Shown here in pieces: positions 28,686-60,745 of a stretch of 64,000 nt of DNA (position 1 is its first letter; each line of letters opens with the position of its first letter). This DNA is from Paraspadella gotoi. Lineage: Eukaryota; Animalia; Chaetognatha. Under the pieces are notes generated by a model. The model saw only the letters and a program-made list of their open reading frames with translations. It did no database searches and was not told the origin of the DNA. Both the position numbers and the translations under genes were made by a program. Where the stretch lies: NCBI GenBank assembly GCA_051294375.1, contig CM119268.1:7914308-7978307 (forward strand), read 5' to 3'.

Positions 28686-34455
<5,770 letters not shown>

Positions 34456-39191: not shown

Positions 39192-41667
39192 CTAGTTCCT
39201 CCTCCTCACGCAGCACCCCCCCTCCTCCCCCCTCGCCTTACCCTCCGCGATCCCCATCCCCCCGTCCTCCCCTTTGGGCGTCCGCTGGTAAGTGATGAGG
39301 ATCTGATGAGCGGTGAACTTGTCGATGTTGGAGTAGAGGAGAGCGAGGACGAAGACGACGTCGTCCTCCCGTCGGGCGAGCAGTTCCGAAGCGAACTCCT
39401 CGAAGGGTTCCGCCAACGCTTCGTCCACGAAGATGGCCGCCGCCTCGCGGACGTCTCGAGAGAAACCGCCTTGGAAGCGGGGGAAGGGGGAAAAGAAAAA
39501 GAAGGGAGTGAGGGAGAGTGTTGAAGGGGGAGGGGACAAATTCGTAACGTCATTTGATTAAATGATACATTTTGGTCTCTTGCGCATTTAATAAGGGATT
39601 GAATGAATAAATGTAGGAATAAATAAATAAATAAATAAAAAGAATGAATTAATCGCTTTAATCAATTGAGAAGTATCTACTAAAAGAAGGAACTATGGTG
39701 GACTAAAATCCACCAACCGTTCATCAGCGGCCATTGGTGCCGGAGGCAAGTCATTCGCCTCCCAACCCAAAGGTCCGGGGTTCTAGCCCGGTGATCGCCT
39801 AGCAGTTAAGAGGGACGGGGCGCTTAACCCGCCTGTAACACGGTGTTACAGCCTGAACCGAAGCTCAGGGACTGCTTATATAGAATGGTTCTGTCACTGA
39901 TACATAACAATAATTACTGTCTCTTCAGAACCAACAACTAACCAATCAAGGCCACTCCAACTCTCTCTCACCGTTAATGTTTCTGACGTAAGAGTAATAC
40001 GGCGCGATTGAGGCGAACGGCAGCAAGAAGACGAAGACGAGGTCGAGAAGGAGGAAGTGCTTGGCGAAGGGATTCGAGGGAAGAACGCACATCACGCTGG
40101 AGGCGTTGACGTGGGAGTCGAAGGCGCCGCCGATCTCGCAACGAGCCGTCGACGGGAAGGAGTAGTTGAGGAGGATCGCCAGAAGCAACGCCGCTTGAAG
40201 AGCGAAGGCGAGAACGCGTCCAAAGACGTTCAACCACCTGGGGATGTTTCAGGGGGAAAGAGAAGTGTTGGAGAGAGGGAGTGGACGGTATGGATGGTTG
40301 ATTGCAAGACATTGTGATTCGAGAATGGAAAAAAATAATTAAGCAAATTCTTTAAAAATATTTTTAAGTAGCGCTTTTCCGTTTAAAAGTATTTGTATTT
40401 CTATGTAAATTGGCAAGGTAAGAGCCATCACACTAATACACCGTCACTCTTATATAATTGAGAACGTTCTTTATTAACGAGTCAAACACATTAATTCAAA
40501 CATTATATGAATTTGCCAATCACCAGTACGAAGCGTGCAGCGATTGCTTCAGAGTCGCCGGCATTCTTTGCTTGACGAAAATATTGAGGGCACACTGGAG
40601 CCTCAGCTGCACCCGTCGCTGCATCTCCAGCACTTCGGGATCGTCAGGGAACACGGTCGTCGACCGCTGTAACATAAAAAATGAGTAAATCATTTTTAAT
40701 TTTTTTAAATAATTTTTTAATCATTTTTAATGACAACTATCGCTATGCATGCTGAAGTGCTACTGTACAGAGATTTCTCAATAATTTTTTTCACGATAAC
40801 CATGCCCATTTCCCAACAAAACTGGCCCCCAAACCTTTCCAAACGATTACCGACCATTGCAATCACCACTTCTGACCTTGGCCCCCGGTGCTCCGCTATC
40901 CGCGCCGCCATCGTCGGGATTCTTCTCCGCCAGTTTGGCGATTTCCTTCGCGTCGTTAATGAGAGGTTGCACGACCGACTGACAGGCGGCGAAGTAGAGC
41001 AGGTAGGGCAGGTAGGCCACCACCGCCTGGATAAGCATCGCGAAGATCACGTAGCGCCGGAAAAAGTCGATGTCGTCTGAATAGAGAAAAGAAGGTCATT
41101 AGAGTTGAGGTTAGGTGAGGTCATTTGAGTTGAGATGACATGCGACGACCTCACCCTCAGCGGAGACAAAGTTGCTCGTCGTCCGACAGTAGGCGTCCAC
41201 GTAGGCGGAGAGGTGCGCCTGGAACTCGTCGGGGATGTCTGAAGAATCCATGGAGGAGGGGGCGGCGTCGACGGCGGGAAAGAAGCATCTTGCCGGATCC
41301 AAAACTTGGATTGCGACTAGAAAGCCTGTCGTGAAGAGAAATTCTTTAATTAACAAGTTAAGTTACTAACTAAAGAATCGATGGAGTACGTATAAATCTA
41401 AACTGGATTATTAGTAAAAACATCGACATTGTGATTTTTTAAAAAATTAAGTTACTAGAAATGATAATGTGCTCTTCATTAAATTAAAATATCAGTAAGT
41501 AGGTACGTAATTGTAAAACATAAGAAATTAATAAGCGAACCTGCGAGGGCACAGGGGATGAAGGAGCCGACTTTTCGGGCGAGACGGTCGGCAGGAAAGT
41601 CCACGTCGACCTCGGCGTAGATGCTGCCGAGGAAACTCGACACCACACCCCCTAACGAGTCCGTCAT
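39192..41667 (-). CDS. Innexin/pannexin-family channel; exons 41667-41541, 41325-41155, 41076-40877, 40666-40524, 40237-39972, 39469-39192
   Basis: DFPADRL before TM1; EL1 cysteines RCFFP...AYVDAYC; TM2 IQAVVAYLPYLLY with conserved Pro; EL2 FPSTARC...CVLPSN; C-terminal DVVFVLALLYSN. All five introns are GT-AG with matching phases. Confidence 0.85.
39693..39926 (+). mobile_element. tRNA-derived SINE-like repeat in the last innexin intron
   Basis: Cleanest copy. tRNA-like segment 39727-39799 with acceptor stem GCGGCCA/TGATCGC, B-box GGTTCTAGCC and a CTCCCAA loop reminiscent of tRNA-Gly. Confidence 0.8.
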
Positions 41668-42250: not shown

Positions 42251-43327
42251 ACAGTCAAAAAATGCGGCGAGTTGGTCGATTGATTCGATTTTCTTCACTC
42301 ATGGTCCTTGGCAAATTTCCATCCGCAGCTCGATGACGTCTTTTGTTTAACGTAATTGTGGCGTTTTTTCAGTAATCTTGCTTAGCTAATGCGATTGATT
42401 TATATCCGTTGTTAGGAAAGCTTTTTCTTGTATTTTAAAATCAAACGGAGATATGGTAGGAAATATAAAAAAGAAAGTTATGAAAAAAATATATATTTAA
42501 TTCTTACATACTGTTTTTTAAAGAATATTTTAAAATATTTTGATTGGTTCAAAAAACTTTTCAGACAGATTCCAGTATGAAAATATTATACTTTCGTATT
42601 TATCTCTGCTAGTTGTCAAACTACTGCTAAAGTACGATGACATAAATAAAAACTTCATTTATACGTTTGTTTTTAAATTTCTTCAGATCCTGCATCTTCT
42701 ATCAGACTAACCAACCAACTGAGAAACTGCAGCAAAATCATAAAGACTTACCTTTCCGAGATCGAGTCTTGTTGACCAATCACGAAACGAGAAACAGATC
42801 CTGACTCTTGCTCCTTATCTACATGGGCGAAATGAATAAATTCCAGTTGGATAAAGGATAAAATAATTTTATACTAAAGTTTTCTGTATTATTTTTAATT
42901 AACAATGCTGATGTGATAATAAAAATTAATATTATGTTTATCATAATATTAATAATCGGCAAATTGCAGTTCTTTGCTCATTTGTTTCCCGCCACTTTCT
43001 TCTCAGCGACATCTGACGATCGACGAGTTAAACATCAGACATAAAGAGAATCACGTGGCATCTCCTGCCTCGCCGGCTTCGGGTTCCTCCTCGCTTGGCC
43101 TGCGGCAATCCGCATTCCTCTTCCAAGCGTTTCGTCCACGAGGTGAAAGCGTGAGAGACCATTGATCACTCTTCGCTTCAACTCTATACTTTTTAGATTA
43201 TTTTTTTTTCTCGTCGATCACAAGCATTTGACGCAATGATTCAAGCTGCTTCAAGCATCATCCGGCTTCAGTTCAGACTCTTAATCAGGTAAGTTTAAAA
43301 CATGAGTTTGTGCATCCTTAATCTCGT

Positions 43328-43389
43328 ATCTGATGAGCTTTTACCGCCCCAGTCTGAGTTGAAATGACTGAGTGGTCTTATTCTGATTT
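43328..43389 (+). ncRNA. SNORD31: Box C/D snoRNA U31 (SNORD31-like), copy a
   Basis: TGATGA 43331; guide TACCGCCCCAGT + D' CTGA; D box CTGA 43383-43386. The guide is complementary to the LSU P-loop ACUGGGGCGGUA, and the +5 rule gives the E. coli Gm2251-equivalent G. Confidence 0.92.
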
Positions 43390-43558
43390 TTCTACGTTTC
43401 GTTTTCAGAAACGCCTAATAAACGTGAAGATCACTAAAATCACTGTATTTATTTTTAGTTTGGATTGTTCCTTGGCTCTCCACGGCCATAATCGCACGTG
43501 TTGGGGTCCGACCTAAAAGGTACAATATTAGTTGTAACATATTAACTCTTCTAAATGG

Positions 43559-43618
43559 TTAATGATGAATTATACCGCCCCAGTCTGAGTAATATGATTG
43601 ACTGGTTACCCCTGAAAT
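43559..43618 (+). ncRNA. SNORD31: Box C/D snoRNA U31, copy b
   Basis: ATGATGA 43562; ATACCGCCCCAGTCTGA; D box CTGA 43612-43615. Confidence 0.92.
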
Positions 43619-43868
43619 TTTTATATTAGAGTAAATCTTTTTCTTTGACTCCACCTTGTTGCTCATTAAGAATATAAATTTTATTTAGGTTAATGCCACG
43701 GACTTATCGCCATCCTATCGTGTTCGATACAAATTTACTTTGAGAAGTTGATGGTAAGTAAAGCAATTCTCGGAGTTATTCTAGGAAAGATCAATGATTT
43801 ATTTCAAATATTTTTTAACGCTTATACAAGCGTTTTTTTAATTTTTTTTCGTACACCGTAAGCATATT

Positions 43869-43931
43869 GATATGATGACCATATACCGCCCCAGGCTGAG
43901 AAAAATGATTGAGTGGTTTAAAATCTGAATT
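43869..43931 (+). ncRNA. SNORD31: Box C/D snoRNA U31, copy c
   Basis: ATGATGA 43872; ATACCGCCCCAGGCTGA; D box CTGA 43925-43928. Confidence 0.92.
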
Positions 43932-44117
43932 TTAAAAAAAATCATCGGGTAGCTTACAAAGCTAAGAATCGGTTTAATTAATTTTGAATTCTTTTTCAGA
44001 TTTGTGCCAAACAACAAGCTTCATATCGGCCTTTATGTGCAGACTGCTGTCAGAATTATTTGTTTGTCAAAGTAAGTTAATGAAGTTTTATTTATTATTA
44101 TTAGTTATTAGTAAAGT

Positions 44118-44198
44118 AAAGTGATGATTTTCATCCGTTCTCTGAGCAGCCGTTTTGGTACTAGTGATGCTTATTGTAACGAGGCATTTGTCTGAGAA
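44118..44198 (+). ncRNA. Dual-guide box C/D snoRNA with a U15-type D guide
   Basis: C GTGATGA 44121, D' CTGA 44142, C' GTGATGC 44164, D CTGA 44192. D guide ACGAGGCATTTG pairs with LSU CAAAUGCCUCGU (the U15/snR13 site). D' guide TTCATCCGTTC can pair with LSU GAAUGGAUGAA. Confidence 0.88.
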
Positions 44199-44334
44199 CA
44201 GTTTCACTGGAAATTGTAACGTCGTTACATTCCCTATCTAATACGATTTTATTTTTTTTTTTCAGATTTTATTCCAATGAATACGTCGTTTTTTCCATTT
44301 AATATTGGTAAGTCCCTCGTTATCAATATACTAC

Positions 44335-44460
44335 AGAGGCCAGAGTCATTAGTAGATTTATTGTAGTCTACTGATGCTAAGGTTCTCTAAAAGCAAGTTT
44401 CTGTCACCTATCCACCGCTGTTGTCTATAATTTCGGCGGTCACGAGTAGGCCGAACAGTA
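44335..44460 (+). ncRNA. Box H/ACA snoRNA (target unassigned)
   Basis: Hairpin 1 AGAGGCC..CATTAGTAGAT/GTCTACTGATG..GGTTCTCT; H box AAAGCA 44390-44395; hairpin 2 CCTAT..ACCGCTG/CGGCGGT..GTAGG; ACA at 44455 plus 3 nt. Confidence 0.8.
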
Positions 44461-44612
44461 ATTTAAAAACGATTTACTTATCAATCAATTTAACGCTTAA
44501 TTTATTCGTTTTAGGAATTGTTCTCCGACGAAACGCTGAATCCTACGCATCGTGCTGTCACAGCCATTTTGTAAGTTGGTTGGATTTATTAGCAATGTTT
44601 TTCTTAGGATTT

Positions 44613-44676
44613 TCTATGATGCTCATCCAGTTCTGCTACTGAACCAATATTGATGTCAATTTTACCATTCTGAATT
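44613..44676 (+). ncRNA. SNORD38: Box C/D snoRNA U38 (SNORD38/snR61-like)
   Basis: Variant C box ATGATGC 44616. TCCAGTTCTGCTA-CTGA matches the U38 guide and pairs with LSU AGCAGAACUGG. D box CTGA 44670-44673. Confidence 0.88.
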
Positions 44677-44827
44677 TTCAAATTCATGCGTTTTTCGCCA
44701 AATACCGTGTGAATATTTCCTAACTTTCTGCATTTTTATTCAGGTTTACTTGCCGTAAATAATCTTATTTGGACGCCCAAAAACCTTGGTAAGTTATGGT
44801 TTCAAATGTTTTCCATTAATTATTTAG

Positions 44828-44987
44828 GCACAGATCAGCTCCGACGAAATCTTTTCATGGTTTCGCCGGCGTTTCCTCCTGTGCAGATCAACGTCCTCGC
44901 ATGGGCCGAGTCTGAACAACTCGCGCGCGACCGCTATCCCAGGCTTTGGCCCTCGCGGCCGCCTGCGGACGAAGTATCGCAACATTC
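44828..44987 (+). ncRNA. Box H/ACA snoRNA with an enlarged, branched 3' domain
   Basis: Hairpin 1 GCACAG..CGAAATC/GGTTTCG..CTGTGC; H box AGATCA 44885-44890; second domain closed by CGTCC/GGACG; ACA at 44982. Pocket GTTTCCTC + ATCA fits LSU GAGGAAAC-U-C-UGGU, with 14 nt to the H box. Confidence 0.72.
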
Positions 44988-45163
44988 CATTTTTTTCTCC
45001 TGCTTTTACTTTTTTTTAATAATTTAAGAAAATTCATTCAAATTTTCTTTCCTTTTAGGACAACTGCTATACGATTAAGCGAGAGACCTTCGTTCTTTGA
45101 CGACGGTAAGTTTCCGGTAAAGAATTCGTTGAAAGACTTTCTGATTTTAGTATAAATGAGGCC

Positions 45164-45288
45164 TATTATGATGAAAAGCTCCCTCGTTATAGTCGGCATT
45201 CCTTAAGCTGGAGCCCGAAAGGGCGAGAACCCACCAGTTGGAATGTCGGCTTTGAATAATAACCTGTGAATACGTAACCTGACGTAAT
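45164..45288 (+). ncRNA. SNORD22: Long box C/D snoRNA, probable U22 (SNORD22) homologue
   Basis: ATGATGA 45168; CTGA 45279; terminal ATTA/TAAT pairing; long internal stem AGTCGGCATTCC/GGAATGTCGGCT capped by GCTGG-AGCCCGAAAGGGC-GAGAACCC-ACCAGT. This cap resembles the GAGCC..AAAGG..GAACCCAC apex of vertebrate U22 as I recall it. Length ~120 nt. Confidence 0.72.
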
Positions 45289-45964
45289 CCTATTTTACTA
45301 TTAAGCAGTATATTGTAAATTTAGTGATCTAATATTGTAATTTTTCTTTTCAGTTTTTGGCGATTCCCAAGGCAAAATACGTGACGCGCGAGGTAAATCT
45401 GCTTTCTTTTGATATAGATTTTTTTGGCTTCATTTATTTAATTGATTAGTTTTAGATTAATTAACAATCTTTTGTCATCGTATAACTTTCTCGAACTCTG
45501 TTCAATGAAATAGAATTTTCATGCTTTATCTTCAATTTTCATTAATCGATACATAATACTCAGACCGATATCAGTTTTATAACATGGATTAATTTATAGG
45601 CTATTACCGGCCTTCGCTCAAATTCAGCAATGCAAATCGCTTTCCAAACACGTATTCCTTCTTCCAAATGTTTGGCCGAAAATGAAAATTCTTGTTCGAA
45701 GGCTGTGAAACACTAGGCAGTCCTTTAAACAATTCAGCCTTTGTACGACAAGTTTCATCGAGTAGGCTTATTTGACCGTCGAGTTCGCGAACGACCAATG
45801 CAAATTAAAAAACAAAATATCGTTATGACCGTTTGACTCGAGCCACGTAATTTCCGGGGCTGTCGGTAGTAACCAATTTGATTGGATATCATTCTACTAG
45901 CGACCGGCTTTCGAGTTACGCCGCTCATTTAACCTCCGCGACAGTATTAAGCTGTAAGTCAAAA

Positions 45965-48900
45965 ATGGCGTCCGACGACGTGCTCTCTCAATCTCGCCCT
46001 TTATCGCCGTCCGACTTCCTTTACCCGGTCGACGACCCCAAAGATTTGGAGTCGGACCCCAACGCTTCCGCCAACCGTTCTTTGGATCAATCCTTCGGTC
46101 AGGATCAACTCTTCGGGGATAATGCTGGATCCTTCGATCCGTTTACCGACCCGTTCCAAGATTTGAGTCCTCCCTACCAATTGGAAAACGGTCCTGTCAA
46201 TTTAAAACGTCCTTTTGAAACAGGTTAATTATAATATTTTTTCATTTTGATGCATTATTTTTTAAAGATTTTTTTTAATAAAAGTGTAAGTTTGTGAGAT
46301 GTTTAGTGTTGAAGTAGCAGCGCCAGTTAATGTATTCGCCATGGGTGAGACGAGGGATCGACTAATTGAATATACAATATCGCGGAGGTTAGAGGTGAAG
46401 TTCGTGAATACTGATGAGCGAAAGTTTCTGCTCGAGGGCAGCGCAAAGAATATTGGCTATGGGGCAAAAGCGCCGAATTTATTTTCAGAAAAGCAAGGTT
46501 GGAATTGGATAACAAATTTTTATTCATAATTTTCTTACAATGCTGTATGGCTATACGGCTATGTCTTACCCATCAAACTCCAGGTCTTAGTTTTGACAAT
46601 TCGGCGTTTAATCCAGAATTTTTACGCCTGGAAAACCGATCCGATGCCGACGACAGCGAAGGAGGCGACAAAGGCAGCGACGACGATGACTTTTACGACG
46701 TTTCCTCCAGCTTAGGTAAGGCGTTGGGAGATATGCGTTAATTGTAGCTTAACTTTGACATAAATTGTTAACCTCGCTTCCAATTCTCGAAATCAGGGCC
46801 TCCGGTGAAACGACGTTCGGTCCTTCTCCCCGAGGAAGACGCCTCCGGCCTTTACGATGGCCTCGATGAGGCCGATACATCGCGGGCGGACGATTCGGTT
46901 GCCAAAGGTTCGTCGCTGAATGATGATTCCTTGGTTCAACTTGCTTGAATCGACTCTCACGTTAACTCGTCTTTTTCAGAAGGTACCGACGCCGGCGAGA
47001 TGGAATTGGAAGACCAGTCTTCGGAGGAAGAAGAGGCTGATAATGGGGAAGGTACGATTTTTCAAACAATTATACAGCCGAGTCGTCTTAACTCGGGCCT
47101 TACTTGCATTAACCGTAAAAACATAGCCGGATTATCGCCCGTTTTAGGTTCCACCAAAAAGCCAACTGAGCGAAAAGAAAGGGAACAAATTCCCAAGGAT
47201 CTCGAGTATTCCGTCGACTTCGAAGAAATCGATAACCTTTTGGATCAGGGGCTAGAGAAAGGGGTCAAGTCTTACAGGTTATTTTTTTGTGTAGACTTCA
47301 GTTTTAACCAATAATTTTTGCTGTACCTCGATTGTATTAAAAAAAAAATTCATTCCCAATCAGACGGAAAGCCGACGGAAAAATAGTTGACGTGCGAACT
47401 CGTTATACTTTGGTTCATCTCGGCAAAGACCCGTTCGAGGTGCTGCCTGACGGTTGGATCGAGCTGACACACGAGAGCGGCATGCCAATTTACCTGCATC
47501 GGCGAACCCGAGTCTGCTGGTAAGCTTTTCTTTGTCATTTGGTAATTTTGGATAATTAAGTAACCACAGCCGTCCTAAGCCACGTGCGAGATGGCTTAAA
47601 TTAATCCTTTTGTACTAATCTTATTCGGTAGTTATTTAAATTAAGATCATTGTACCCATTTACAGCTTGTCGAAACCGTACTCCATCGGACGAGGGTCTA
47701 CTCGCAAGCACGAGCTTCCAATCAGCGCCGTTCCCTGCTTTCAATACCGCCAAGCTCTCAAGCAGCGCGAAGAAATGAAGGAGCGCGCCAATGGTATTCC
47801 TAATTATTGACTTATTACGTCACAAGGGTAATATTTGTTCAACATAATTGTTCACTTGTCTTAGGCGCGACCGACGTGTTGACGATCCAAGAACCAGGCA
47901 AAACGGACGTGGTTCCCGTCATTCGAAATCCGCCCGAAGCGGGCGTCGCCGACAAAACTTCTCCCAAAGAAAAACTATCGACCTCTGGTGCTGCGGAAAC
48001 TGCTGAGGTAAGATAGATTAATCTTCACTACTATTTTTCCGCCGACGATGCTTCGGGGATCTAGGGAAAACTGGATCCGGCGAGGACCCTCGACGAATTC
48101 TCCTCTCGTGAAACACGATTGGCTTTTCGTCGATTCGCTAACCCTAAATTTAATTACCCACTTAATGCTACGACCCTTAGACGAGTTTTTCCATTTCCTT
48201 TCTCGTCCTTTTCCCCCCCCTTTTTAAAAAAAGGAAAGTGGGGTCTTGGCCGGTCCTAATTTTCCCTGTCCCGTCTCCCCTTTCGGCTCATTACCTTTTC
48301 CGCCGCGGCTCGGAATGTCCCAGTGAAGAGCGAATCCGCATTCTACGAACGGATAGCCGAGTCGTTTGGCGGTGAAGGCGTTGTATCGTTTGAAAGGGGA
48401 AAGTCTCGTCGGTAAAGAAAAAAAACGAAACGATCGATTTACACAAGAGAATTGTTCGGCCTCTTTTTCGCCGCTTTTCCCGTCAATCGTTTCGACAAAA
48501 GTCTCTTTTCTGCGAGATTGACCTTCCTGGTTTGACATCGAATGCTCAATTTTTGGGGTCATTTTTAGGCGGAAGTAGCTGCTCCCGAATCCGCGTCTCC
48601 GGAACCGATGGAAACGACGCCGATACCCGATTCTGTCCCATTCCTGTCGTCGCCGTCCGCGAGCCCCCTGCCGCCGCTACCCTCGGAGAATTCTCTTCTG
48701 CCGCAACCGCCACCTTCGTTGTCCTCTTCGTTGCCGGACGCTTCGACACCGATCATGAATGGGCCGCTCGGCGGGTGTCCCTTCAGCGGGCAAGTGATCG
48801 TCTGAATATTTTGATCTTGCCGTCATGTTGCGATTCTTAAAGCATTAATTTACTTACCATGATGGAAAAAAAAATTGTCACGTGTTGAAAAATTAATGTT

Positions 48901-51169
48901 ATTGTTAAATATTTTTTTAAAAATAATTTTAATATATTTTTTAAATAAAATAAAAATATTCATTTTAATAGTTTAAAATTATTTAAAGCTTACAGATATT
49001 TATAGTTTTTAATTTTTAAATTGAATAAAAAATATATTTTTTATTATTATATAATATATATTTTATTAGATTTATAATAATAATTTTTAATAAACAAAAA
49101 AGATTGATCCTTTATGAAGCAAATTAAGATTTTATTATTGTTGTATTAAATAATATATATATTTTTTAATATTAATAACTTTAAAAGTTATAAAGATAAT
49201 AATTTTTATTTATTAAAAGATTATTTAGCTTTATTTTTATTAATATAAATAAAAAATATATTTTAATATATTTATTATTTTAATATTTTTATTTAGTTAC
49301 AATGTTGTTATTTTCTTGACATTCTCTTACAGTTCTTCAGCCCCTGAAGCCGAAAACTCTCAAGGAGAGGCAACCGTCTCTACTAAGGACGCCTCCTCCG
49401 CGCCGGGCGACACTTCTAAAACGGATGAATCTCGTCGAAAGCAGACTGTAAAAGCAACGGAAATGCACGACTACTGCAAGAATCTTTTCGAGTTCGACCA
49501 TTACACCGTCAAGAGATTTAGGCGAGTGGATCAGTCGTTTCTCGAATGATATCGCCGTTGTTAATAAAAAAAAAGATTCGTGCAATTTAGTTAAAAAAAG
49601 ATGGAAAAGGCGTACGGAAATGTATAAAAAGTCTATTTAATTCATACGCTTTTTTTTTTTAGGTCCTGGAAGGATCGGCGCGAGCATCAGCGCGTAATGA
49701 AGAAAATCCGGCCTCAGATTCAATCGAAACTCATCACGTACAAACTCCCCGGAGATCCGACGGCGTTAGGCAAAGCCAAACTCGGCCGACAATTCCAACT
49801 CAATCCCGTCGGTGGGTTTTTTAAATTTGCCTTTCTTAACTCTGTCTCCACGCCACGTGGTCTTGCATCTTCTTTGCACGCAGCCATGCCATAGTGGAGA
49901 CGAAATCAATTCTAAAAATCGTCCATAGGAAGCAGGCGCGATTCTTTCGTGTTGTCGCCTGTGCCGTAAATCGTGACGAACATTTTCATCTTGAAATTTT
50001 GTAATTTATTATTTTACGTAAAATGTATTGATAGTCGTATCTCTCTTTTCTCGAGTTGAATCTTATTAATTTCTCTCTCGTCTTTAGGCAAATCCCCTAT
50101 TTGCGTGCTGCACGAGTACGTGCAACACGTTCTAAAGATCTCGCCAGAGTACGTGTACTCTGAGTTGGAGAATCCCCAGGAGCCTTACTCGTGCACGGTG
50201 ATTCTCAATGAAGTCGAGTACGGCCGCGGAACAGGGAGCAGCAAGAAACAAGCTAAACTCGAAGCCGCCAAAGCCACTATGAAAGTTCTCATTCCACAAC
50301 TATATGCAAAGGTCAGTTGATTTTAGAAATTGATTACTTAGTTTAGTTTGTCTTAATATTTCCGCTTTTCTTACTTTTCTAAACTTTATTTTTCGTATTC
50401 CATTCTCCCTGAATCCCCAGGGTGGCGAGACGTTCGACGACCAAGACGCCCTCAACGGGACGATCTCCTTTTTCAACGACATCCAAGTTGAGGATCCCCG
50501 AGTCACTGAATTCAGCCAAAAATCTGGTCAACCAGCGCCTTACCAAATTCTCATCGAGTGCCTCAAACGAAATTACGGTCAGTTTTTTTACATTGTACTC
50601 TTCTCGTTCTCGATAATAATCCTTTTTCTTTCTTTTCAAGGAATGGGAAACACCGACGTTAGCATGTCAATGGAGTTGTGCAAAAACCCCAAACGATTTT
50701 CTAAGTTCACCATGACCGTAGGAAAACATACCAAGGTAGGTTGTTTTCGAGAGACATTACTGCTTTACTCAATACTTTTATAATTACTAAACCGATTATT
50801 CTTACTTTTTCCCAACAGACTGTCAAGTGCAAAAACAAAAAGTTCGGGAAGCAGGCTTCCGCTCAGGGCATCCTCCAACTCCTCCACCCTCACGTCAACT
50901 CCTGGGGATCGCTGCTCCGCCTCTACGGCTACGACTCTCGTCAGCGCAACGAGCGGCGGAAGCGGGAAGAGGAGCAAGCGGTGACGGAGCTGCAGTCGCG
51001 CGCTCGTCCCAACCGGCCTAACACGGCAATCCTGGACAAGCTTCGTCTGGAAATGAACAAGCTCAACGCACTCCGGACCGCCTTCGAGCGCGGTCGGACC
51101 ACCTTTACTCCGGCAGACAAGAACGACTTGCCGTATAACAAAACCGCATTGCCTACTCTGGACCTTTGA
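45965..51169 (+). CDS. DGCR8: Microprocessor subunit DGCR8/Pasha; exons 45965-46223, 46584-46715, 46797-46907, 46980-47051, 47148-47277, 47364-47519, 47666-47793, 47865-48007, 48569-48789, 49333-49521, 49663-49811, 50088-50311, 50421-50577, 50641-50735, 50819-51169
   Basis: [10 protein letters not shown]; WW/Rhed [46 protein letters not shown] with the heme-ligand Cys; dsRBD1 [25 protein letters not shown]; dsRBD2 [48 protein letters not shown]; tail [13 protein letters not shown]. Intron phases are consistent. Confidence 0.95.
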
Positions 51170-51782: not shown

Positions 51783-52431
51783 ATGTCGACGGAGGATGAT
51801 CTCGCCGAAACGACACTAAAAAAGACGAAATGGATCGAAGCGCGTCCAAGGGCGCAAAGCAACGAACGGCGCCGGTCATTTAACCGGACAGCGAACTCGA
51901 GCTTTGCCGGAAATCGTCGAGGACGACTGGGAGAGCGACGAAGACGGCGCCGAAAACTACGGCGCCAACTCTGATAATTCGCGCGAGAATTTTCCGAATT
52001 CCTCTTTACTCACTCCGCCCGACGTCGGGGAGAAACCAGCGTCGAGGCGTCGGCGGAAAGGGCGCCGTCGTCGCGATTCGTCCAAAGACGCGGAATCTTC
52101 GACGGTGGACTCGGCGCTGGTCATTCGCAGCCTCCAACTGGTTTCGTTATCCGAAGACGTTATCGAGGAGTTACTCGCAATGTCCCTCGATCTCAACAGG
52201 CGGTTGCGCGCGGAAGTCAAGCGGCGGGGCAGCGATTCGGGATCCTCGCTCTCAGCTGTAACCGCTCATTCCGTCAGGCGCATGTCGAAATTAACACTGC
52301 CGGCGGTGACGAGGAGACCGCCAGTGGCTGGGAGCGCCAAGGACAAAGGAGCGGCTGGGGGTGGCAAGAGTCGGAGAGCGATTGCGAAGCTGCAGCAGCA
52401 AGAACCGTGGAATGACAGATTCGGAAAGTAG
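51783..52431 (+). CDS. Orphan single-exon protein (~215 aa), probably split by a 1-nt homopolymer error at ~51903
   Basis: GC-rich island starting CGCCATG. ORFs 51783 and 51904 join if one T in AGCTTTGCCG is removed. Acidic, basic and coiled-coil-like segments; no family recognised. Confidence 0.55.
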
Positions 52432-54705: not shown

Positions 54706-56519
54706 CTCTCCCTCTCTCTCTCTCTCTCTCGTATCAAGAAAATATTGCTTCTGAAGATGAGATATATATTTTTGGGACGAAACCATCATTATTTCTAAAC
54801 CTCCTGATGCAGAATCTTCGACTTGATCCCTTTCTTCTGGTCCGCGATTCCGAGCAACTTCTTGAATTCGCTCCGAAAATTGTCCGAGAGAAACGCGTAC
54901 AGTATCGGGTTCACGCAAGAGTTAATGTAGGCCAAGCAGTTGCCGACCAACTGACGGTGGATTAAGAAATGAATAGATGCGAGAAAGGATTGATAATTGA
55001 GGAAATGTCATTTTATTAAATTTTATTCTCTACATGATTTACAAAGAATTTTGAATTGTTACAACGATTTTATTATTAATAAGTTGCAGACATGTTTCGA
55101 CTCAGAGATTTTCGAGTCTTCATCAGCGCTTTTTGACAGTTGTTGACAACTTATTAATAATAAAATCGTTGTAACAATTCAAAATTCTTTGTAAATCTCT
55201 ATACAACAACCAAAAGAAAGGATATACCATGGATCTCTACATGATAAAATATTCCGACCGATACAAAAAATTTAAAGAAAGCCAAAAACGCGGATCGATC
55301 AACGATTAATTCAAACTTTCGCGCCGCGACCCAACCGCAAGCATATTACCGCTCTCTATTTAGCGCAACGGAATCTTTTAACCTGAAAAAAAAACCCCTT
55401 CGTTAACTTCAGTGGCAGGTCTCTTAATTATTTTTAAAAAAAGGAGACGGAGAAGAACTAATTACTCCACTCGTTGACGAGCGAACGAGCCATTGGCTCG
55501 AGGTCGGCGGCGGAAGTCGAGAATGTCAATCGGTTCCAACGTTAATTGCTCATTCATTCGCGCTCGTAATTGACTCTGGTCACTGTGAGCATCGGTTGAG
55601 GAGAAAAATTAACTTTGATTGAAAAAAATATATATATTTGAAGATGCGGAATTTGAAATAAAAAAAAAATTTCTCACCCGGATAGGTTGGATCGGATTCG
55701 GTCACAAATCACCGTCGTAATTTTTTTTTTACAATCACAAACTTTTTTCTGATCACCCGCCTCCTCGCTTATCAATCACCAGCGAAACTTTTTTTTTATT
55801 CTAATCACCCACGAGCCAATCACCTGGAATATGACTTTAGTCGGCGACATTTCCCCTTCGCCGAAGACGTCCAGCATGAAGTTGATTTGGTTGGGAAGCC
55901 AGCAGAGGGCGAACACGAGGATGACGGCCACGACCATCCAAGTCACGCGCTTCTTCTGCGCCGACTTCGGCTTCCGGTCTCCATGAGCTGGGGGTGTCGG
56001 GAAGTTGGAGTGGGGGGGGAGTTGGAATGAATGGGGGGTTGGATGGGGGGTGTTATAGGGGTAGTTAAAGAAAGGGAAGTTGGAGAGGGAAGAGAATAGG
56101 TAGGGAAACGGTTGGAGGACGGTAATTGGATAGGGGAAGTTCGAAAGAAGACNNNNNNNNNNTAATGAGGGTTGAAAAGTTAAGCAGGGGATTTAAAGTA
56201 AACAATTATGGATAAAAATTTTGTATTTAACTTCGTGTAACCGAAATTGAGGAAGACAGTTGGAAAGGAGAGATGGATAAGTTGGAGGGTCGTCGGTTAT
56301 ATGAGCTTTGGACGGGCGAGAGGAATGAATACAAATCACGGGAAGAGAGAGAGAGACAAGAGAAGCGAAATGCCTACTGTGCCGGAGAAAAAAACAAGAA
56401 GACAGGAGAGAGCGAGGAGGAAGATGGAGGAAAAGGTGCGAGGGAAAAAGAGAGAGGAGGCGGAGGAGAAGTACAAAAGACCTATGTCGGTAAGAGAGAG
56501 AGAGACGAGAGAGAGAGAG

Positions 56520-56551
<32 letters not shown>

Positions 56552-56811
56552 AAGAGAGAAGATAGATAGAGAGAGAGAGAGAGCAGAGCATTTTTATTCT
56601 TTTATCATTCCGCCATCAGTGCGACTTTTTTCTCCAAATCAGCCATTCCTACTCAAGAGAAGAGCCGATCGTTTCCGTTTGCGGAAACTCTTTGCTCAGA
56701 ATTTTGAATTAAGGCTGTCACACTGGTGAACGTCAAAAGATCTGTTTTTATTATGTAAAGGTCAAAACGTGTATGAGGTTTTGTCATATTATGACATCGT
56801 CGCATATATAA

Positions 56812-56872
<61 letters not shown>

Positions 56873-56938
56873 AATTATGTAAAGGTCAAAACGTGTATGA
56901 GGTTTTGTCATATTATGACATCGTCGCATATATAAGGA

Positions 56939-57018
<80 letters not shown>

Positions 57019-58409
57019 CTCTCTTCTCTATCTATCTTTCTCCCATCCCGTTCTCACCCTTTCTCAATCCATTCGCCCACGCGAAAAGTGGCAACTTTCA
57101 ATCCATGATTGTCACTCTGATCACCTTTTTGACCCCGAGCACTTCCTTCTCCTTTTTTCGCGTTTCTCCCTCTCCCCTTTCGACCTCTCACCATCGTTCC
57201 TTTACGGGGACTTCAAACTGGACTGATACGAAAAAAATTGTAATATAATCGAAGCGAAGAGTTGTAAAATTGTTTCGTACTAATAGAAAAATACTTGACT
57301 TTTTTTTTCCACCAATTTATAACATTCTCGTTAGGATAGTTGCTAAGTTATAAACGTTTTCCTTGGAGAGTACATTTCTGAAGAAGCATTTTTTAACTTT
57401 TAAATTTCAGATAACTTGTCAGAAAACTTTACAATCAGCGTTAAATTGTTAAAAACTATTAAAATTTGAACGAAAAAAATGAACAAAAGTGACTCCGCGC
57501 TTGAGAGCCACTGTGATTATACTATTAAGAAATTAGAACATTTTTTCTGGTCAACATGAACGTCAAGCAGTTTTCTAACTAATAAATATTATAAAAATAA
57601 TATACGGTGAAAGAATTACGAGTTTAATCAAATCTTTTTGTATCAGTCCAGATTGAAGTCCCTGTAGTGTGAACCTCACGCCGCGCCACGCTCCTACAAG
57701 GCGCAACAACAACTACGACCCTTGTTCATTTATCATTGCCTAAATACTCGCCGCCACCTGGGCCCCCCCCAAAAAAAATTGAAATTTTTCAGTACAAAGC
57801 GAATTTCTTCTTTTTCTCAAACCTATTCATGAACAATCGTTTAAGCTTTTAGAAATAGTAAATCCAACCTATGGTCCATTTTCATCATGACAATTTTATA
57901 ACCCGGTTTTGGCACATTCTTGAAAGATTTTATCGGTTCGCCCATTCCATGCTTAGCCGACCTTTGAGATACAGCCACCGATCGCCAGTGTCACCCCTCA
58001 GCCACCATTCGAGGCCAATAACCTTGCGCAGCTTGACATCCGGGTTTCCTGGTCGTGAGAAGTTTGTGGACGAGAACTCCGTATAAAACCGAAATGAGTA
58101 GGATGGGGAGAAGATAACCGAATGTCAGGAAGCAGGCCGTGAAGACTTGATGCTGGAGAAGAGGGAGGGATAAGGAAATTAGGAAAGGGATGGAGAGAGT
58201 AAGAGAGAGANNNNNNNNNNGAGAGAGAAATGTAAAAAGTCGTACATTTAATATTAGACGAAGCAAATGCCAAGTCTTTGTGTCAAGTGACTCTCAGAAT
58301 GTAGTATAAAAATAAGATTGATAACTTAATGTCAGATTGCCAGGGCGATATGACCGAGGACGGAAAAGTAGACGTGCCAGGTTGCAGAGCAAAACCGGCA
58401 AAAAAAAAG

Positions 58410-58443
<34 letters not shown>

Positions 58444-60068
58444 ACCATCCCTCTTATCATCTTGTTCCTCTCCCATCCCTTCTCCTCCTTTGACTCATTA
58501 GGAGCAGAATTTTAATCAAGTGAAAATAATTTTTTTTTATTTTTTCATCTCGGAACAAAAAAAAACAGACTTTTAAGGTTTTTCTCTCGTTTTTACCCAA
58601 AAAAATTTTCGCTGCCAAAAAAAAAAAAAGACTAAACTCATTAGCGGGTTTCGTTTGGGTGAACATTATGGGCGTAAGTGAATGGAATGATTTGTGGTTA
58701 TCTATGGGCAGAGGGCGCGTCGCCCGCGACGTCCATATTAATTCGAGCTATATCGCCCCTAGGGGGGGGGGTGAGGTTAGGAGGGGTGGGTGGGAGGATG
58801 GGGCGAGGCGACGCTGTCTCGCTCTTCATTTGCATTTCAGGTTTTATCTTTGATGCTGTCGTTGTTGTTGTTGTCGTCGTTCTTTTTCTCCCTCTCATCT
58901 CTCTATATATAGGTCAATTCTGGGATCAAGAAGCAATCTTCCCCCTGATTCGCGACCAGTGACCACTAAGGCGGAACAAAAAACAAAAAAAACAAAAAAA
59001 CAAACTGAGCAAATACCATAAAATTCATCAAATTATAGTAAAGATGATGATTTTTTATGGTTTTTTAACTTTTTTGCCAATTTATCATGAAAATTTCCCC
59101 ATCGTTATAATACTAATTTTTATGTAACATTTTGGATTTTATCTTAATTTTTTTTATAAATATAACTATTTCTTACATATAGCTAAATATTCAAATGCTT
59201 CAGCGTGTCATTACAACAAAGTAACAAAATGATGAAAAGATGATAAATATCGGTTCAGTGATGAAAGGACAAAAAAAATTATTGCAGAATATTTCAAATT
59301 GTAAAAAGTGTTAAATTCTCGCCCGTCTTGGTGTCCACGTTCTTTATCTTGGCGTGGACGATAGCGACTACTATATGCAAATTAGTTTTCGGAAGAAGAG
59401 TCTCTTCTTTCTCCTTCAACTTATCTAGTACCATACGGCTTGAAAGAATAGTTTTTTTTTTTAACTATGAAAATGTCTGTTTTCGTCATATTTTATATGA
59501 TCCATCGTTGTTTTTTTTCTTTTTTTTTTTTTTAGATTTATTCATGAGCGGAAAACGTTAATTGCTTTTTGGAATATTTTGAATTAATTTTGTGCATTTT
59601 CATTATTTTCGCGTCATAAACATTTTTCTTGGGGGAAAAAAAGAGCAATAATATATTACTATAATAATAAAATAAGGCTTTTTTATTAAGGACTTAAACC
59701 CGCGAAACATTTTTTTTTCGTACTACGTCATTTCCTCTGACAAGGACGTAACATAACATAACATAACTCATAAGATAATACTAAAAATAATTATGTCTCT
59801 GGCTTCACCTTTCCTAACCTCCACACCCCCCGCCACCCCCGCCACCGCCGCCTCCCTCTCACCCCCCCACCTCACCCTCTGTCTGGCGTCGACGCGGACA
59901 ACGGGATCTGCGCTCATCATCTCCAGACGATCCTTGGCGAGACAGATGGCCCGACGCTGCCCGTTGTATTCGTACTCGTGCACCATGAAGGCCACGCCCA
60001 CCGGGATGTCGACGACGGCGAAGACGAGCCACACTACCGACGTCACCGCCCAGGCGATTCGCTCCGTT
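54103..60068 (-). CDS. Rhodopsin-class neuropeptide GPCR, allatostatin-A/galanin receptor-like, TM4 to C-terminus; exons 60068-59876, 58152-58023, 55987-55824, 54950-54801, 54492-54103
   Basis: TM4 [12 protein letters not shown]; ECL2 Cys; TM5 [17 protein letters not shown]; TM6 [23 protein letters not shown]; TM7 [24 protein letters not shown]1-3 exons are not visible (upstream or within N gaps). Confidence 0.88.
55027..55245. mobile_element. Penelope-like terminal-repeat insertion with inverted arms and target-site duplication, in a GPCR intron
   Basis: Perfect 51-bp inverted repeat (55036-55086 / 55147-55197), direct repeat TCTCTACATGAT at 55027 and 55234, and a hammerhead between the arms. 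Confidence 0.8.
55086..55129 (-). ncRNA. Minimal type I hammerhead ribozyme (Penelope-type)
   Basis: Minus strand reads GCG-CTGATGA-A-GACTC-gaaaatctct-GAGTC-GAA-ACATGT-C-TGC: intact core, GUC cleavage triplet, palindromic stem III. Confidence 0.88.
57205..57664. mobile_element. Tc1/mariner-type MITE (TA TSD)
   Basis: TA|CGGGGACTTCAAACTGGACTGATAC ... GTATCAGTCCAGATTGAAGTCCCTG|TA; no coding capacity. Confidence 0.85.
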
Positions 60069-60099
60069 CTGGACATTGGGGAGAGATTTTTAGTCGACG

Positions 60100-60745
60100 A
60101 AAGGGAAGGGAGGAAGGCAGGGATGGAAGGTGGGAAGGGAAGGGAAGGGATGGATGGGGAAGGGGAGAAGTGGGGGGAAGGTAGAGAAGATGGGAAGTGG
60201 TAAGGGAAGAGGAAGCGGAGGGAAGGGAGAGAAGGAGGGAGAGGGAGGATGGGAAGGGATGGGAAGAGAGGAAGGATGGAAGGGTGGAAGGAGGGAAGGA
60301 AGGGATGGATGGGGAAGGGACATGCGGAAGGATGGGAAGGATGGGAAGAGAATGGGGTAAGGGAGGAGGGAAGGAGGAAGGAGAAGGATGGGGAATGGAA
60401 GATGGAATGGAGAGGAAGGGGACTTGGGAAGGAATAGTGGGAGGGTTGAAGGGAAGGGAAGGGAAAGAAAAGTGAGATGGGAAGGGAGGATGGGGAGGGA
60501 TGGAAGGGGATGGGAAGAGATGGGAAGGGATGGAAGGGAAGGAAGGAAAAGGAAGGGATTCTGGGGAGAAGTATGTGGAGGGATTGGGAAGCGATGGGAA
60601 GCAGATGGAAGGGAAGGGAAGGGATGGAAGGAGGGAAGGGATGGATGGGATGGGAAGGGAAGGATGGGACAGGGAAGGGAAGGAAGGGAAGGGAAGTGGG
60701 AAGGATGGAAGCGATGGAGGGGGAAGGGAAAGAATGGAAGGGCGC
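60100..60745. repeat. Polypurine (GGGAA/GGGAT)n low-complexity tract
   Basis: About 650 bp of almost pure G/A on the + strand. Explains the overlapping G/R/E- and P/S/L-rich ORFs. Confidence 0.9.

Follow-up and report, generated by a model that had tools for sequence, protein, structure and literature searches.

Within a 64-kb window of the Paraspadella gotoi genome (64,000 nucleotides of contig CM119268.1, assembly GCA_051294375.1; coordinates below are positions in this window), a host gene with eight intronic small nucleolar RNAs (snoRNAs) continues, in assembled contigs, by splicing into the first coding exon of Pasha, the DGCR8 homologue and a subunit of Microprocessor. Host and Pasha both lie on the plus strand. 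We cautiously favor a reading in which the host is the 5′ leader of Pasha, or is routinely read through into it, as part of one spliced transcript with a predicted TCT/terminal oligopyrimidine (TOP) start. The layout of the host is routine and of a known kind; the new parts are its link with Pasha and a likely non-vertebrate U22 in the last loaded intron.

The host transcript and its junction with Pasha

Evidence for splicing and expression comes from assembled contigs of a single public run, X1, whose RNA status is a guess, aligned to positions 42500-46500. Nine splice joints, every one GT..AG, define ten exons in that interval, and introns 1-8 each hold one snoRNA, leaving eight of the nine introns loaded:

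43052-43057, plus strand: E-box CACGTG (motif scan; about 60 nt 5′ of the predicted start)
43117-43123, plus strand: TCT/5′TOP-type initiator CCTCTTC (predicted +1 at C43118)
43113-43288, plus strand: exon 1 (RNA contig; joint 43286-43457, cut +2)
43459-43519, plus strand: exon 2 (RNA contig)
43689-43753, plus strand: exon 3 (RNA contig)
44000-44071, plus strand: exon 4 (RNA contig)
44266-44307, plus strand: exon 5 (RNA contig)
44515-44570, plus strand: exon 6 (RNA contig)
44744-44788, plus strand: exon 7 (RNA contig)
45059-45105, plus strand: exon 8 (RNA contig)
45354-45392, plus strand: exon 9 (RNA contig)
45393-45599, plus strand: intron 9 (25% GC; empty)
45600-46223, plus strand: exon 10, where Pasha/DGCR8 coding begins (contig 5; loose ends)
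45965-51169, plus strand: multi-exon coding region of DGCR8/Pasha (Pfam dsrm, PDB DGCR8)

An earlier note on this DNA, made from the letters alone, had proposed a spliced gene with one snoRNA in each of eight introns, in the order U31, U31, U31, dual C/D, H/ACA, U38, H/ACA and long C/D; the joints and the RNA assignments confirm this, and the spliced RNA was found among the X1 contigs. The 5′ limit it had set at 43197 proved too short, since exon 1 begins at or before 43113 and its first 84 nt had been missed, and the RNA contigs correct the start of exon 2 to 43459. The exon 1 contig is ungapped across 43113-43286; the RNA contigs use no intron at 43151-43196 and no acceptor at 43408, and both were rejected. 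Intron 7 is retained whole between exons 7 and 8 in one low-depth contig (44760-45105, depth 6.15), and this intron, with its GC-rich H/ACA RNA, is possibly spliced more slowly. A scan of intron 9 for C or D boxes returned none.

The initiator CCTCTTC is the sole TCT match in 42800-43600, and the 5′ end of the RNA contig at 43113 lies beside it, as a contig end that cannot fix a start. By analogy with Drosophila Uhg genes the E-box at 43052 may be a Myc site: Uhg1, Uhg2 and Uhg5 are described with Myc peaks centered on E-boxes, and a review and a bioRxiv preprint describe vertebrate snoRNA hosts as 5′TOP genes. The leader between the predicted start and the ATG of Pasha measures 963 nt and contains ten upstream ATGs, which precede several junctions and are compatible with nonsense-mediated decay (NMD) of the spliced RNA; its longest ATG-initiated open reading frame (ORF), of 49 residues, is equaled in 249 of 500 shuffles. 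The description of the locus as nine exons devoid of an ORF thus stands for exons 1-9, which lack protein-coding capacity, and fails for the tenth exon reached over a ninth intron: exon 10 holds 365 nt of untranslated region (UTR) followed by the ATG of Pasha at 45965, which gives the spliced RNA an ORF after all. Likewise, the gene is a multi-intron snoRNA host as claimed, but because its spliced RNA runs on into Pasha exon 1 the label of non-coding gene is incomplete.

The identity of the downstream gene is given by its protein, which matches Pfam dsrm (E 4e-14), DGCR8 in PDB (E 4.5e-20 and 3.8e-9) and named homologues. Its WW/heme region, double-stranded RNA-binding domain (dsRBD) and C-terminal Drosha-binding tail resemble those of DGCR8, and its N-terminus aligns from residue 1 with a full-length relative, P0003 (E 2e-11). 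The nearest relatives are 84-87% identical and form a long, unplaced branch in a rapidly built tree, which compared the last 380 residues of 45 chosen Pasha proteins, the window's own not among them.

The junction itself is carried by contig 5 (689 nt, depth 160), which contains joints 8-9 and 9-10 and is unbroken to the donor at 46223, where two loose ends lead to Pasha exon 2 acceptors at 46584 and 46617, both in frame. These acceptors lie 33 nt apart, giving isoforms that differ by 11 residues. By subtraction, the depth of the exon 10-exon 2 junction is about 90-210, the range reflecting whether or not a short connector contig is included, as compared with 8.4 for the unspliced form of exon 10 and 236-253 for the host exons. 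Because a contig runs from exon 8 through the Pasha ATG, the host is likely the 963-nt leader of Pasha, or else is read through into it as with U17HG-RCC1. A zero-depth bin within intron 9 (45448-45581) essentially confines any separate Pasha start to exon 10, and a Pasha mRNA that included the first of two exon-10 hairpins (hairpin A, described below) would have to start no more than about 80 nt from the acceptor of exon 10.

Several points weigh against joining host and Pasha in this way. All of the expression evidence comes from the contigs of one run of guessed RNA status, and the depth argument for Pasha rests on one junction. As depth is poorly measured from contigs and a contig spanning two genes does not prove a single transcript, continuity and depth are supportive only. 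Searching metagenomes for Pasha yielded two loci, both covering the 3′ part only, so that no relative's linkage was seen. The remaining objections are also what speaks for an account we consider rather unlikely: that of a stand-alone non-coding host of the Uhg or GAS5 type, ending near the ATTAAA at 45804, with a separate Pasha promoter just downstream. The mean depth of contig 5 (160) is below that of the host exons; the ATTAAA is accompanied ahead of the ATG by CCAAT, ETS-like and YY1-like motifs (45795-45970; motif scan), a set compatible with a poly(A) site for the host and a promoter for Pasha; and with ten upstream ATGs the long form would serve poorly as an mRNA. On that account contig 5 would reflect overlapping ends that were joined, or minor read-through. 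Yet the contig is unbroken, depth past exon 10 is comparable in order of magnitude with that in the host exons, the promoter and poly(A) motifs are short consensus matches, and hairpin A, lying 5′ of the ATTAAA, would fall outside such a Pasha mRNA.

Some long-branch invertebrate lineages trans-splice, and the long branch here, together with the tight spacing of host and Pasha, would suit an operon-like pre-mRNA from which spliced-leader trans-splicing at or inside exon 10 frees a Pasha mRNA with a short UTR. We regard this as improbable: no loose contig end occurs at the exon-10 acceptor or within exon 10, with the proviso that short tips can drop out in assembly, and the long branch is itself unplaced. 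In the literature searched (mostly titles and abstract openings), nothing was found that describes the joining of a snoRNA host to Pasha, nor did a literature search on read-through wording return a report of read-through from a host into a coding gene.

Intronic guides and their predicted targets

The entire window was scanned with Rfam at gathering level, and in a second pass at E up to 10. Three matches reach the gathering level, all of them SNORD31 and situated in introns 1-3, whereas SNORD22, snR61/U38 and SNORA3 fall below it; the family check foreseen in the earlier note is thereby borne out at full strength for SNORD31 alone. Its labels U31, U15, U38 and U22 nevertheless hold when Rfam, guide identity, targets and motif are taken together. 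The cargo is as follows:

43325-43392, plus strand: SNORD31 (U31) copy 1, intron 1 (Rfam 43.8 bits; D′ guide with a 12-bp LSU match)
43555-43621, plus strand: SNORD31 copy 2, intron 2 (Rfam 54.4 bits; D′ guide with a 12-bp match)
43867-43934, plus strand: SNORD31 copy 3, intron 3 (Rfam 41.5 bits; D′ guide with an 11-bp match)
44117-44198, plus strand: double-guide C/D RNA, intron 4 (SNORD15-like D guide and SNORD17-like D′ guide)
44333-44460, plus strand: H/ACA RNA of the SNORA3/45 family, intron 5 (Rfam 38.6 bits, E 7e-5)
44611-44676, plus strand: SNORD38/snR61 C/D RNA, intron 6 (Rfam snR61/U38 clan, 43.3 bits against a gathering score of 45)
44826-44986, plus strand: H/ACA RNA with a SNORA10-like 5′ hairpin, intron 7 (pocket scan)
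45163-45287, plus strand: long C/D RNA, intron 8 (likely SNORD22 homologue)

Targets were sought in three foreign eukaryotic large-subunit (LSU) rRNAs that stand in for the organism's own: L050, L047 and L038, the last without its 3′ end, picked among 19 pattern-matching loci of 43 returned. They occur as eukaryotic rDNA contaminating prokaryote assemblies (L050 356-6687, L047 1282-6358, L038 1-4607); 22 viral loci contained no eukaryotic rRNA. Sites are given in human numbering, with G4166, A3764 and A1858 taken from the supplement of a snoRNA atlas (PMC4914119).

The D′ guides of U31 copies 1, 2 and 3 have 12, 12 and 11 bp of pairing, respectively, with both of the LSU rRNAs that cover the G4166 site, and are predicted to guide Gm4166. 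The D guide of the intron-4 RNA is identical at 15 of 15 letters to that of SNORD15/Me28S-Am2589 and pairs over 12 bp in all three LSU rRNAs, at the Am3764 site. Its D′ guide agrees by eye with the human SNORD17 guide at 9 of 11 letters, and sets a G against the target U at the U3797 site. A C facing the fifth letter of this guide was seen in none of 16 rRNA-like loci, and a pattern requiring the targets of both guides had no match in viral and genome contigs; the SNORD17-like guide may have decayed, or the rRNA may have changed in this lineage. In intron 6 the D′ guide pairs over 11 bp in two of the three LSU rRNAs and is predicted to direct Am1858. For the D guides of the U31 copies and the U38 RNA, the stand-ins offered no clear, consistent rRNA target.

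Box D of intronic C/D snoRNAs typically lies 70-80 nt upstream of the acceptor. Here the distance from the end of box D to the acceptor is 70-73 nt in all six C/D RNAs, a spacing unlikely to arise by chance and one that fits splicing-coupled assembly; AQR has been described in connection with such coupled assembly of small nucleolar ribonucleoproteins (snoRNPs). A snoZ5 match over exon 9 and intron 9 was rejected (E 5.9, no boxes).

Both H/ACA RNAs appear to address LSU rRNA as well. The intron-5 RNA matches SNORA3 at 38.6 bits, below the gathering score of 51, and folds with a z of -4.2. Its 5′ pocket fits a site 135 nt past A3764, hence U3899, whose context is present in all three LSU rRNAs, and U3899 is its predicted target; the 3′ pocket probably guides U3938. 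As this SNORA3 site was not among the nine best rows of a generic pocket scan, the assignment rests on the Rfam alignment and the LSU target context.

For the intron-7 RNA the pocket scan was more telling. Situated 14 nt from box H, the 5′ pocket forms 8+6 and 6+6 pairs flanking a U; in L050 this U lies 325 nt past the U31 site, which by offset makes it U4491, the SNORA10 site. It is the top pocket-scan match in both LSU rRNAs covering it, was equaled in none of 1000 strand shuffles, and UCAGCUCCG is common to this RNA and human SNORA10; the 5′ hairpin is accordingly a predicted guide for U4491. The RNA has no plus-strand Rfam match, and so none to the SNORA10 family RF00264, and its 3′ pocket gave no convincing target, including that of the second SNORA10 pocket, 18S U210. 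U17/SNORA73 and U19/SNORA74 were considered as identities and, having no Rfam match, rejected. Its 3′ domain (44890-44980) is long and GC-rich with an additional hairpin. The statement that every assignable guide targets LSU rRNA therefore remains for the seven snoRNAs outside intron 8, as a prediction, and lapses for U22, which is no LSU modification guide and has no convincing target here.

The U22-like RNA and resemblance to known hosts

Searched alone against 4227 Rfam families, intron 8 matches one, SNORD22, at 12.7 bits and E 3.1, far under the RF00099 gathering score of 50. Since SNORD22 had been named beforehand, it is fairer to divide E by the 4227 families searched, which gives about 7e-4 when worked out by hand. 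The window contains a single instance of the motif GAGCC..GG..GAACCCAC, and 100 shuffles contain none, a significance that is overstated because the pattern was derived from both sequences. The RNA has C and D boxes and a fold z of -2.6. By eye, both it and human U22 form a long stem closing a loop that contains a GNRA-capped mini-hairpin followed by GAACCCA. The closing stem reads CCAG/CUGG in human U22 and CUGG/CCAG in intron 8, the mini-hairpin GCCU-GUAA-AGGU and GCCC-GAAA-GGGC, respectively; the differences keep the pairing and are thus compensatory. An isolated 154-nt contig (45152-45305, depth 2.9) spans the RNA, a weak hint of a stable species.

These features, along with C box context, length and the last position in the host, make homology to U22 very probable. 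That this is instead an unrelated long C/D RNA seems to us distinctly unlikely: the low score, the unaligned 3′ half, and the fact that SNORD22 gave no match when 841 nt were scanned would all be expected of such an RNA, but they are set against a sole, prenamed match among the 4227 families, a motif absent from the shuffles, and the paired changes in stem and mini-hairpin. No convincing LSU match for it was found in the stand-in rRNAs. A homologue this distant reveals which letters have been kept—GAGCC, the GNRA hairpin and GAACCCA—as candidates for the functional core.

A review describes U22 as required for 18S rRNA processing in vertebrates. In the portions consulted, a 2010 paper states that U22 was not found in invertebrates, and the 2016 snoRNA atlas (PMC4914119) labels U22 "Vertebrates". 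Literature searches surfaced no invertebrate U22. Marz et al. (2011) are nonetheless said to have reported some invertebrate homologues, which leaves the novelty of a non-vertebrate U22 uncertain.

By analogy, the host appears to work like SNHG1, GAS5 and the fly Uhg genes. With SNHG1/UHG it shares short non-coding exons, one snoRNA per intron, a predicted TOP-type start, U31 and a likely terminal U22; it differs in its triplicated U31, its two H/ACA RNAs (the SNHG1 cargo is all C/D, according to a review) and a last exon that enters a protein-coding gene. Whether the resemblance reflects descent from a bilaterian ancestor, with U31 ahead of a terminal U22 and other guides gained later, is independent of the Pasha question, and we hold such descent to be possible though somewhat doubtful. 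U31 and a likely U22 are both present, the latter being the last snoRNA as in human SNHG1. Yet of the human SNHG1 families (U25-U31 and U22) six of eight are absent, the remaining cargo resides in the human hosts RPS3, SNX5, RPL27A, RPS8 and RPS2, and two families would co-occur by chance in roughly 19-35% of cases under a simple, rough model of 100-200 families. With no related genomic locus found besides, the ancient U31-U22 host gene proposed in the earlier note is not shown, and orthology to SNHG1 is unproven. Drosophila Uhg1 reportedly carries multiple copies of U31 and other SNHG1 families, and no U22; a look-up found no such names.

That the locus is an invertebrate UHG-like gene is upheld, as a member of a class already described in Drosophila as Uhg1-Uhg8, which likewise host several snoRNAs each and have an E-box close to the start. 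In the accounts seen, Uhg1 is described without another growth-relevant transcript, and the Uhg literature, to the same extent, yielded no link with Pasha.

U17HG/SNHG3 with RCC1 and U19HG, also named SNHG4, with MATR3 offer a likeness for the junction: each is a TOP-started host directly upstream of, and co-annotated with, a coding gene. They carry two snoRNAs each, as opposed to eight here, and the coding gene concerned here encodes a subunit of Microprocessor; U17HG also lies about 9 kb from RCC1, whereas here the last exon is shared with Pasha. The snoRNA atlas (PMC4914119) lists RCC1 and MATR3 as hosts of SNORA73 and SNORA74, and reviews place U17 within the non-coding U17HG upstream of RCC1.

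Leader hairpins, a proposed mechanism and neighboring genes

The UTR portion of exon 10 contains two hairpins:

45682-45758, plus strand: hairpin A, Pasha 5′ UTR (z -2.4 to -3.2; weak Microprocessor candidate)
45840-45926, plus strand: hairpin B, Pasha 5′ UTR (about 32 bp; z -4.1 and -3.1; Microprocessor candidate)

A fly pasha study reportedly deals, to go by its title, with cleavage of a 5′ hairpin. In having a pair of long 5′ hairpins the Pasha message recalls Dgcr8, with the difference that both are in the UTR here, as against one in the UTR and one in the coding sequence in mouse, and that cleavage here is predicted only. In mammals, the two 5′ hairpins of Dgcr8 mRNA are described as cut by Microprocessor.

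Background windows give a measure of how unusual these structures are. A z of -4 is attained in 1 of 403, and 28 overlapping windows were scanned in exon 10, so that hairpin B is notable and hairpin A alone is not; stems of at least 27 pairs are not rare by count, and neither hairpin has an Rfam match at E up to 10. Against a role for them, 16 of the 403 background windows reach z -2.4, making hairpin A no rarity, and the z of hairpin B falls to -0.6 with a wider flank. Background windows of z -4.9 and -2.5 lie inside Pasha itself (49915-50145), within and at the end of the intron that precedes the dsRBD1 exon.

If host and Pasha are indeed one spliced transcript, the locus might operate as follows. 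Transcription would be driven from a growth-responsive TCT/E-box promoter, and splicing would free lariats to be trimmed to C/D and H/ACA snoRNPs. Seven of the snoRNAs would modify LSU rRNA at seven or eight sites (Gm4166 by three copies, Am3764, Am1858, U3899/U3938 and U4491), and the U22-like RNA would aid 18S processing. Given the ten upstream ATGs and the two hairpins, most ligated copies would be poorly translated by way of upstream ORFs, removed by NMD, or cleaved by Drosha-Pasha at the hairpins, so that a single promoter would give much snoRNA and little Pasha.

The boldest form of this proposal, that in this lineage Pasha acquired the eight-snoRNA host as its leader, that one TOP/E-box growth promoter yields rRNA guides, a non-vertebrate U22 and Pasha mRNA jointly, and that Microprocessor cuts the hairpins of its own leader, at once disposing of the host RNA and capping Pasha, is speculative and in our judgment unlikely. 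Were it true, a one-locus feedback loop would join ribosome biogenesis, snoRNA turnover and microRNA capacity; human DGCR8 has been described as recruiting the exosome to snoRNAs. Even the simpler premise that Pasha is made through the host would tie microRNA processing capacity to a ribosome-biogenesis promoter, and the known hairpin autoregulation of Dgcr8 would double as a disposal route for the host.

The host is flanked by Pasha on one side and on the other by an innexin-like gene (39946-41640, minus strand; weak Pfam match, E 0.0024), placed head-to-head with it, whose 5′ end may share a promoter region near 42800-43100 with the host. Inside a Pasha intron, 48840-49330 is very AT-rich with AT runs resembling inverted repeats, and could be the remnant of a small transposon. 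Further off lie an exon of SPSB3, the SPRY-domain SOCS box protein 3 (34021-34450, minus strand; 59-72% identical to animal homologues), and exon fragments at 55776-60203 on the minus strand that resemble a peptide G protein-coupled receptor, presumably of the allatostatin-A/galanin type. An ORF at 51785-52431 follows the Pasha stop by about 600 nt on the same strand.

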